Part shown: piece after piece, positions 13,886 to 16,147 of the stretch
Layout of the letters: each line of letters starts with the position of its first letter
How positions within the stretch are numbered: the stretch's first letter is position 1
Source of the DNA: Escherichia coli
GTDB lineage: Bacteria > Pseudomonadota > Gammaproteobacteria > Enterobacterales > Enterobacteriaceae
DNA: 64,000 nucleotides
Strand: one strand, 5' to 3'
NCBI RefSeq assembly: GCF_003334815.1
Contig: NZ_QOWO01000010.1
Program-made: the position numbers and the translations under genes
The notes under the pieces: generated by a model
Told to the model about the DNA's origin: nothing
The model's database searches: none
What the model saw: the letters and a program-made list of their open reading frames with translations, nothing else

Positions 13886-13901
13886 TTGCTTGCACTAGAC
13901 C
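13886..13901. promoter_or_regulatory. NemR operator-like palindrome in the nemR promoter
   Basis: near-perfect 16-bp palindrome tagaccgactggtcta about 25 bp upstream of nemR; matches the described NemR box. Confidence 0.7.
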
Positions 13902-13925
13902 GACTGGTCTACTACACTCCAACGC

Positions 13926-14525
13926 ATGAACAAACACACCGAACATGATACTCGCGAACATCTCCTGGCGACGGGCGAGCAACTTTGCCTGCAACGTGGA
14001 TTCACCGGGATGGGGCTAAGCGAATTACTAAAAACCGCTGAAGTGCCGAAAGGGTCCTTCTATCACTACTTTCGCTCTAAAGAAGCGTTTGGCGTTGCCA
14101 TGCTTGAGCGTCATTACGCCGCATATCACCAGCGACTGACTGAGTTGCTGCAATCCGGCGAAGGTAACTACCGCGACCGCATACTGGCTTATTACCAGCA
14201 AACACTGAACCAGTTTTGCCAACATGGAACCATCAGTGGTTGCCTGACAGTAAAACTCTCTGCCGAAGTGTGCGATCTGTCAGAAGATATGCGCAGCGCG
14301 ATGGATAAAGGTGCTCGCGGCGTGATCGCCCTGCTCTCTCAGGCGCTGGAAAATGGCCGTGAGAACCATTGTTTAACCTTTTGTGGCGAACCGCTGCAAC
14401 AGGCACAAGTGCTTTACGCACTGTGGCTTGGCGCGAATCTGCAGGCCAAAATTTCGCGCAGTTTCGAGCCACTGGAAAACGCGCTGGCCCATGTAAAAAA
14501 CATTATTGCGACGCCTGCCGTTTAG
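13926..14525 (+). CDS. nemR: TetR-family electrophile-responsive repressor
   Basis: 199-aa ORF MNKHTEHDTREHLLATGEQLCLQRGFTGMGL... recognised as NemR. Confidence 0.95.
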   Translation: MNKHTEHDTREHLLATGEQLCLQRGFTGMGLSELLKTAEVPKGSFYHYFRSKEAFGVAMLERHYAAYHQRLTELLQSGEGNYRDRILAYYQQTLNQFCQHGTISGCLTVKLSAEVCDLSEDMRSAMDKGARGVIALLSQALENGRENHCLTFCGEPLQQAQVLYALWLGANLQAKISRSFEPLENALAHVKNIIATPAV

Positions 14526-14561
14526 CAGGCATTTTTTATCACCAGACGACCGGGAGCCTTT

Positions 14562-15659
14562 ATGTCATCTGAAAAACTGTATTCCCCACTGAAAGTGGGC
14601 GCGATCACGGCGGCAAACCGTATTTTTATGGCACCGCTGACGCGTCTGCGCAGTATTGAACCGGGTGACATTCCTACCCCGTTGATGGCGGAATACTATC
14701 GCCAACGTGCCAGTGCCGGTTTGATTATTAGTGAAGCCACGCAAATTTCTGCCCAGGCAAAAGGATATGCAGGTGCGCCTGGCATCCATAGTCCGGAGCA
14801 AATTGCCGCATGGAAAAAAATCACCGCTGGCGTTCATGCTGAAAATGGTCATATGGCCGTGCAGCTGTGGCACACCGGACGCATTTCTCACGCCAGCCTG
14901 CAACCTGGCGGTCAGGCACCGGTAGCGCCTTCAGCACTTAGCGCGGGAACACGTACTTCTCTGCGCGATGAAAATGGTCAGGCGATCCGTGTTGAAACAT
15001 CCATGCCGCGTGCGCTTGAACTGGAAGAGATTCCAGGTATCGTCAATGATTTCCGTCAGGCCATTGCTAACGCGCGTGAAGCCGGTTTTGATCTGGTAGA
15101 GCTCCACTCTGCTCACGGTTATTTGCTGCATCAGTTCCTTTCTCCTTCTTCAAACCATCGTACCGATCAGTACGGCGGCAGCGTGGAAAATCGCGCACGT
15201 TTGGTACTGGAAGTGGTCGATGCCGGGATTGAAGAATGGGGTGCCGATCGCATTGGCATTCGCGTTTCACCAATCGGTACTTTCCAGAACACAGATAACG
15301 GCCCGAATGAAGAAGCCGATGCACTGTATCTGATTGAACAACTGGGTAAACGCGGCATTGCTTATCTGCATATGTCAGAACCAGATTGGGCGGGGGGTGA
15401 ACCGTATACTGATGCGTTCCGCGAAAAAGTACGCGCCCGTTTCCACGGTCCGATTATCGGCGCAGGTGCATACACAGTAGAAAAAGCTGAAACGCTGATC
15501 GGCAAAGGGTTAATTGATGCGGTGGCATTTGGTCGTGACTGGATTGCGAACCCGGATCTGGTCGCCCGCTTGCAGCGCAAAGCTGAGCTTAACCCACAGC
15601 GTGCCGAAAGTTTCTACGGTGGCGGCGCGGAAGGCTATACCGATTACCCGACGTTGTAA
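14562..15659 (+). CDS. nemA: N-ethylmaleimide reductase (Old Yellow Enzyme family)
   Basis: 365-aa [31 protein letters not shown]... recognised as NemA. Confidence 0.95.
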
Positions 15660-15739
15660 TCCAACATTGCGAGCGGCGTAAAGCCGCCGCTATACTAAAA
15701 CAACATTTTGAATCTGTTAGCCATTTTGAGGATAAAAAG

Positions 15740-16147
15740 ATGCGTCTTCTTCATACCATGCTGCGCGTTGGCGATTTGCAACGCTCCATCGATTTTTATA
15801 CCAAAGTGCTGGGCATGAAACTGCTGCGTACCAGCGAAAACCCGGAATACAAATACTCACTGGCGTTTGTTGGCTACGGCCCGGAAACCGAAGAAGCGGT
15901 GATTGAACTGACCTACAACTGGGGCGTGGATAAATACGAACTCGGCACTGCTTATGGTCACATCGCGCTTAGCGTAGATAACGCCGCTGAAGCGTGCGAA
16001 AAAATCCGTCAAAACGGGGGTAACGTGACCCGTGAAGCGGGTCCGGTAAAAGGCGGTACTACGGTTATCGCGTTTGTGGAAGATCCGGACGGTTACAAAA
16101 TTGAGTTAATCGAAGAGAAAGACGCCGGTCGCGGTCTGGGCAACTAA
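15740..16147 (+). CDS. gloA: glyoxalase I (lactoylglutathione lyase)
   Basis: 135-aa [32 protein letters not shown]... recognised as GloA. Confidence 0.95.

Follow-up and report, generated by a model that had tools for sequence, protein, structure and literature searches.

We analyzed an inverted repeat in front of the repressor gene nemR in a 64,000-nucleotide stretch of Escherichia coli DNA (contig NZ_QOWO01000010.1 of assembly GCF_003334815.1; hereafter the window). With a probability of about 95%, the repeat and the genes behind it are the well-studied E. coli nemR-nemA-gloA unit with its published NemR repressor site. The operon, the operator and the NemR regulon are all already known, and the main finding is the re-identification of a textbook-level E. 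coli stress operon, with no addition to knowledge. Its value is that of a positive control: a reader of the raw sequence picked out a real, experimentally characterized operator. Gene identities, operator geometry relative to the promoter and conservation were computed here, and NemR binding, the cysteine switch, readthrough transcription and the transcription start sites were taken from the literature.

Window positions 13500-16700 were found to be the E. coli ydhL / nemR-nemA-gloA-rnt locus. All of the 5426 complete E. coli genomes searched matched this region at 95-100% identity, with 80% or more of its length covered, and many of these genomes were a 100% match. The annotated order on a K-12-type record is ydhL (minus strand), nemR, nemA, gloA and rnt. 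Published gene and start-site coordinates showed that subtracting 1710121 from a U00096.2 (MG1655) coordinate gives the window coordinate. On the plus strand, nemR (13926..14525) encodes a TetR-family repressor of 199 aa, nemA (14562..15659, annotated under that name) encodes a 365-aa N-ethylmaleimide reductase belonging to the Old Yellow Enzyme family, and gloA (15740..16147) encodes a glyoxalase I of 135 aa. The original prediction had described the three genes as co-oriented with short gaps, and this was borne out, with 36 nt between nemR and nemA and 80 nt between nemA and gloA. The system is the same as E. coli K-12 NemR / nemRA-gloA (Umezawa 2008; Gray 2013; Lee 2013; Ozyamak 2013). Gene order and operator position are identical, and we found no difference from the window.

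The protein identities, together with the literature, also support the earlier description of the unit as the NemR regulon for electrophile detoxification. NemR equals PDB 4YZE (E = 3.9e-127) except at the positions where the depositors had engineered Cys-to-Ser changes, and it contains the domains TetR_N PF00440 (E = 1e-9) and TetR_C_13 PF16925 (E = 6e-10). A direct check of the residues found Cys21, Cys98, Cys106, Cys116, Cys149, Cys153 and Lys175 to be present, of which Cys106, Lys175, Cys21 and Cys116 are those involved in sensing. NemA scored 764.6 bits against NCBIfam NF007899 (cut-off 403) over its full length, and GloA scored 305.6 bits against NF007629 (cut-off 246) and retains the metal ligands H5, E56, H74 and E122.

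The operator, TAGACCGACTGGTCTA (the NemR box; 13896..13911, plus strand), occurs as a single exact match in the window, and no other site within 3 mismatches of it was found there. It is an inverted repeat of the form 6+4+6, with arms TAGACC and GGTCTA and a non-complementary centre of 4 nt, giving 6 of 8 possible pairs, and 14 nt separate its end from the nemR start codon at 13926. The box fills the 17-bp spacer of the nemR promoter. On one side lies the -35 element TTGCAC (13890..13895, plus strand), within a CTTGCA block that is conserved in the aligned genera, and on the other side lies the -10 element TACACT (13913..13918, plus strand), in which T13913, A13914, A13916 and T13918 are invariant and which is located 7 nt upstream of the mapped start. 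The original prediction of an operator preceding nemR was thus upheld, and the operator proved to be single-copy, conserved and inside the nemR core promoter. The prediction had also called it a 16-bp near-perfect palindrome. The palindrome and its position stood, while "near-perfect" is fair only relative to other genera: in Kosakonia and Yokenella the box is a perfect palindrome over all 16 bp, TAGACCGATCGGTCTA.

The start sites, taken with their read counts from a genome-wide mapping (PMC3415461 supplement), fit this arrangement. The nemR start is at 13926 on the plus strand, which is the A of the ATG (15 reads, 5' untranslated region (5'UTR) of 0 nt), and its position agrees with the -35 / box / -10 geometry. 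Between the -10 element and the ATG we found just 6-8 unconserved nucleotides in 10 genomes, without a Shine-Dalgarno sequence. The published start on the A of the ATG and the promoter geometry show that the nemR mRNA is leaderless. The nemR orthologue of Klebsiella pneumoniae likewise has a 5'UTR of 0 nt (PMC3415461). An RNA-level role for the hairpin that the operator could form (-7.4 kcal/mol, z = -1.7) was rejected, because the mRNA begins downstream of it, at 13926, and does not contain the sequence.

To characterize the conservation of the box, the region upstream of nemR was aligned between E. coli and eight other genera (Salmonella enterica, S. bongori, Citrobacter koseri, Kosakonia, Pseudescherichia, Yokenella, Pseudocitrobacter and Silvania). 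The mean column identity was 58%, and essentially the sole conserved block, seen across 9-10 genera, was cTTGCa.tAGACCGA.tGGTCTA.TA.A.T. Both arms of the box are invariant in the aligned genera, whereas the 4-nt centre and the flanks vary, the centre freely so among the loci of the genome scan below (GACT, GAAC, AATC, GATT, GAAT, GATC and others). In Silvania, a gene resembling eptA (EptA_B_N and Sulfatase domains) lies between ydhL and nemR, and the promoter block and box are retained. The block therefore belongs to nemR and not to ydhL. We then scanned about 100,000 representative genomes with the box-containing pattern CTTGCANTAGACCNNNNGGTCTANTA, which has 20 fixed bases and for which about 0.5 chance matches are expected, and obtained 101 loci. 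Of these, 99 had sufficient DNA downstream, and in 98 of them a NemR homologue, 44-97% identical, begins 37-39 nt past the start of the pattern. The next gene is nemA wherever the downstream sequence is long enough, and gloA comes after it in most Enterobacteriaceae as well as in Erwinia and Pantoea, with Providencia and the beta-proteobacterial assemblies lacking it at this place. The single match lacking nemR, in Corynebacterium stercoris, had no TetR-like open reading frame nearby and was taken as a chance match.

Two further observations concern the distribution of the promoter and box. In Silvania, Enterobacter, Lelliottia and Leclercia, ydhL is located about 1.8 kb upstream of nemR instead of adjacent to it, with the nemR promoter and box unchanged. 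Assemblies from Neisseriaceae and Chromobacteriaceae carry an identical promoter-plus-box before nemR-nemA (NemR 44-65% identical), with no gloA following, which could reflect either deep conservation or horizontal transfer.

The literature describes NemR as a repressor that acts at an inverted repeat within the nemR promoter. Genomic SELEX (systematic evolution of ligands by exponential enrichment) gave nemR as the single NemR target (PMC5934670), while 2 sites are listed in a second table by the same group. The operon is derepressed by mutations in the NemR-binding site (PMC5297802), and a spontaneous single-nucleotide change in the nemR promoter, predicted to abolish NemR repression, suppresses a rutE deletion (PMC3045373). 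Electrophiles inactivate NemR through disulfides of Cys21 and Cys116, and hypochlorous acid does so through a Cys106-Lys175 sulfenamide. RNA polymerase occupancy is continuous from nemRA into gloA, readthrough raises gloA expression, and in a nemR deletion GlxI activity is about five times higher and sensitivity to methylglyoxal is reduced (PMC3739934).

Together these data support a model in which a NemR dimer (TetR family), bound at TAGACC-N4-GGTCTA, would shut out RNA polymerase and so repress both its own leaderless mRNA and nemA. From the geometry of operator and promoter we infer that occupancy of the spacer would block the polymerase sterically. Modification of the NemR cysteines by electrophiles (N-ethylmaleimide, methylglyoxal, glyoxal or quinones) or by reactive chlorine species lowers the affinity of NemR for DNA, and the operon is derepressed. 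Some transcription would then get past a weak hairpin and T-run 3' of nemR and enter nemA. Readthrough continues across the nemA-gloA spacer, which lacks a proper terminator, and adds to basal expression of gloA from its own promoter. NemA reduces electrophiles, and GloA turns the adduct of methylglyoxal and glutathione into S-lactoylglutathione.

This arrangement resembles that of other repressors. TetR/tetO, AltR of Pantoea and RcrR of uropathogenic E. coli are, like NemR, homodimeric helix-turn-helix repressors acting at an inverted repeat that overlaps their own core promoter, and they too are released upon chemical modification or ligand binding. Unlike repressors of the TetR/tetO type, NemR is released by covalent cysteine modification and not by reversible ligand binding. 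Its gene also stands first in the operon instead of being divergent from the target, and its mRNA is leaderless.

We found no evidence in the analysis that contradicts the explanation by a NemR operon and operator, and contact of NemR with exactly 13896-13911 is suggested by secondary citations and by conservation. The footprint of Umezawa 2008 reportedly placed NemR on these 16 bp. Some points nevertheless weigh against reading the palindrome as the NemR operator. The loci of the genome scan were picked by a pattern that contains the box, and the 101-locus set ties the box to nemR and does not give the frequency of nemR without it. In addition, RutR binds TAGACCGACTGGTCTA in vivo and in vitro (PMC2475637), and the site is not exclusive to NemR. 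The palindrome could be mainly a RutR operator linking nemRA to pyrimidine catabolism, with NemR acting elsewhere in the promoter, which we consider very unlikely. The exact 16-mer is a RutR site from chromatin immunoprecipitation on microarrays (ChIP-chip) and gel shift, at -22.5 relative to ydhM, and our literature search for the 16-mer found it only in that paper (PMC2475637). Like the RutR box, the NemR box is a 16-bp palindrome recognized by a TetR-family regulator. It matches the RutR box TTGACCAnnTGGTCAA at 11 of 14 positions, including A4 and T13 at the key positions 4 and 13, in agreement with Table 1 of PMC2475637, and ydhM is not among the poor gel-shift targets of RutR named there (fepB, yahA, mntH and fhuF). 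The two systems are also linked physiologically, since loss of RutE is suppressed by nemR mutations and made up for by over-expression of NemA (PMC3045373). Because NemA over-expression compensates for the loss of RutE, cross-talk is plausible. However, a review assigns RutR binding upstream of nemRA-gloA no part in the regulation of the operon. The box departs from the RutR consensus at positions 2, 7 and 15, and the first and last of these three do not vary among the aligned genera. It travels with nemR, including in the loci separated from ydhL by the eptA-like gene and in the beta-proteobacterial assemblies, and it is the sole conserved inverted repeat in the promoter in which the literature puts NemR on an inverted repeat.

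The shape of the palindrome carries no significance by itself. Perfect 6-N4-6 inverted repeats number 32 in the window, where about 16 are expected, and a repeat this frequent could arise by chance, without function, inside a promoter that is conserved for other reasons. What sets this palindrome apart from chance is that it lies in the promoter spacer and that it is conserved. Spacer sequence of sigma-70 promoters is normally unconserved, yet both arms here are invariant beside a variable centre and variable flanks, and repressor binding and derepressing promoter mutations have been reported. We therefore regard a chance repeat as having a negligible probability, lower still than that of a mainly RutR-directed site, and retain the NemR operator as the explanation.

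A second palindrome of the same 6-4-6 shape, CAAAGTagcaACTTTG (13873-13888), lies just upstream. It is not conserved in other genera and was treated as chance. It overlaps the inferred -35 of ydhL, whose promoter is back-to-back with that of nemR on the minus strand (13848-13883; inferred -35 TTGCTA at 13883-13878 and -10 TTCAAT at 13860-13855). The mapped ydhL start is at 13848, minus strand (2 reads, 5'UTR 25 nt; PMC3415461), and a TATTGAAG block in the ydhL promoter region is conserved across genera. The operator and the 5' end of nemR are flanked by a 15-bp direct repeat, GCAACTTTGC(T/C)TGCA, with copies at 13880-13894 and 13979-13993. A single E. coli genome among the 5426, FDAARGOS_1258, has lost by deletion the 99 bp that lie between the direct repeats, and with them the operator, the -10 hexamer and about 22 nemR codons.

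A second element resembling the NemR box was found before nemA. The sequence (T/A)AG(A/T)CGAC(C/T)GGTCTA, which is absent from the search pattern, occurs between the nemR hairpin and nemA in 82 of 86 other loci. These span most Enterobacteriaceae, Erwinia, Pantoea, Providencia and two Neisseriaceae assemblies, and among the loci surveyed the element is lacking in Intestinirhabdus alba and a Chromobacteriaceae assembly. In 79-82 of the 82 loci, the columns A, G, C, G, A and C are retained. The element has its right half-site and its centre in common with the NemR box, and its TAGAC and GTCTA arms stand 1 bp closer together than those of the promoter box. It lies just 3' of the nemR hairpin and abuts the Shine-Dalgarno sequence of nemA, with 13 nt usually left between its end and the nemA start codon. 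In the window, in E. whittamii and in a species representative labelled E. coli, the alignment left only the remnant CAGACGACCGG (14543..14553, plus strand), a deletion of about 9 bp having taken the GGTCTA right half. The 9 bp missing from E. coli are TCTATTCAG. This short nemR-nemA spacer was matched at 95% identity or more by 5426 of 5426 E. coli genomes.

An RNA hairpin was considered for the second box and rejected: the left-arm variants TAGTC, AAGAC, CAGAC and TAATC are uncompensated in the invariant right arm. A site acting at the DNA level is therefore more likely. Scans in Salmonella and Kosakonia found no conserved promoter around the second box. A consensus scan of the nemR-nemA gap in E. 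coli, Salmonella and Kosakonia detected no internal sigma-70 promoter; on record in this gap is only the minor nemA start at 14543, plus strand (3 reads, 5'UTR 19 nt; PMC3415461), at the first base of the remnant. On sequence grounds, the second box is a tentative candidate for an auxiliary NemR operator, a roadblock or looping partner that would control nemA separately from nemR, at odds that we put somewhat below even. If it is functional, the single-operator model from E. coli K-12 would describe a derived condition and would not be representative. Its conservation almost everywhere but in Escherichia suggests that NemR is wired to nemA differently in Salmonella, Klebsiella, Enterobacter and relatives. 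No description of the second box was found in the literature searched, curated regulon databases lying outside that search, and this secondary finding may be novel.

The nemR stop codon is spanned by a hairpin, GCCTGC-N6-GCAGGC followed by a T6 run (14513..14537, plus strand), which a terminator scan identified as terminator- or attenuator-like. It folds at -11.4 kcal/mol (z-score -2.75), and a hairpin of -8 kcal/mol or better is present at this place in 79 of 86 loci. The stems covary across genera, e.g. GCACCTG/CAGGTGC and ACGCCA/TGGCGT. This suggests a partial terminator, which may set the ratio of nemR to nemA.

A promoter scan identified a promoter of gloA itself, TTGCGA-18 bp-TATACT (15667..15696, plus strand), which fits the gloA start mapped at 15703, plus strand (14 reads, 5'UTR 37 nt; PMC3415461). 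Its spacer holds a GC-rich inverted repeat, AGCGGCG/CGCCGCT (15672-15678 / 15685-15691, plus strand), that folds at -15.6 kcal/mol. Of 59 loci, 49 retain the form TTGATA-(GCGGC-N-GCCGC)-TATACT, and their -35 element is usually TTGATA. The spacer repeat is invariant and offers no covariation to indicate whether it acts as a DNA site or, within readthrough transcripts, as an RNA hairpin. Another start assigned to gloA lies inside nemA at 15058, plus strand (31 reads, 5'UTR 682 nt; PMC3415461), and would supply NemR-independent gloA transcription. Downstream of gloA, a terminator-like hairpin (16156..16178, plus strand; -17.7 kcal/mol) has a counterpart in Salmonella and Kosakonia and is likely the 3' end of the nemR-nemA-gloA unit. 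The next gene, rnt, has a separate start at 16222, plus strand (22 reads, 5'UTR 28 nt; PMC3415461). A search of 13500-16700 against Rfam gave no credible match.

In two E. coli strains, NZ_CP100876.1 and NZ_CP148440.1, the region was matched as two separate pieces. One of them has an IS1A-family transposase annotated under the match, and in the other nemA is annotated twice. One copy of the region was also found on a plasmid record. The genes beyond rnt varied between genera. In the window rnt is followed by lhr (16990-21606), as it is in the Escherichia-like locus. In the loci first fetched from other genera, a glutaredoxin gene directly follows rnt in 7 of 8. Pseudescherichia has a gene with ImpA_N and VasL domains in place of the glutaredoxin gene. 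In strain ER1709, lhr is annotated as frameshifted.

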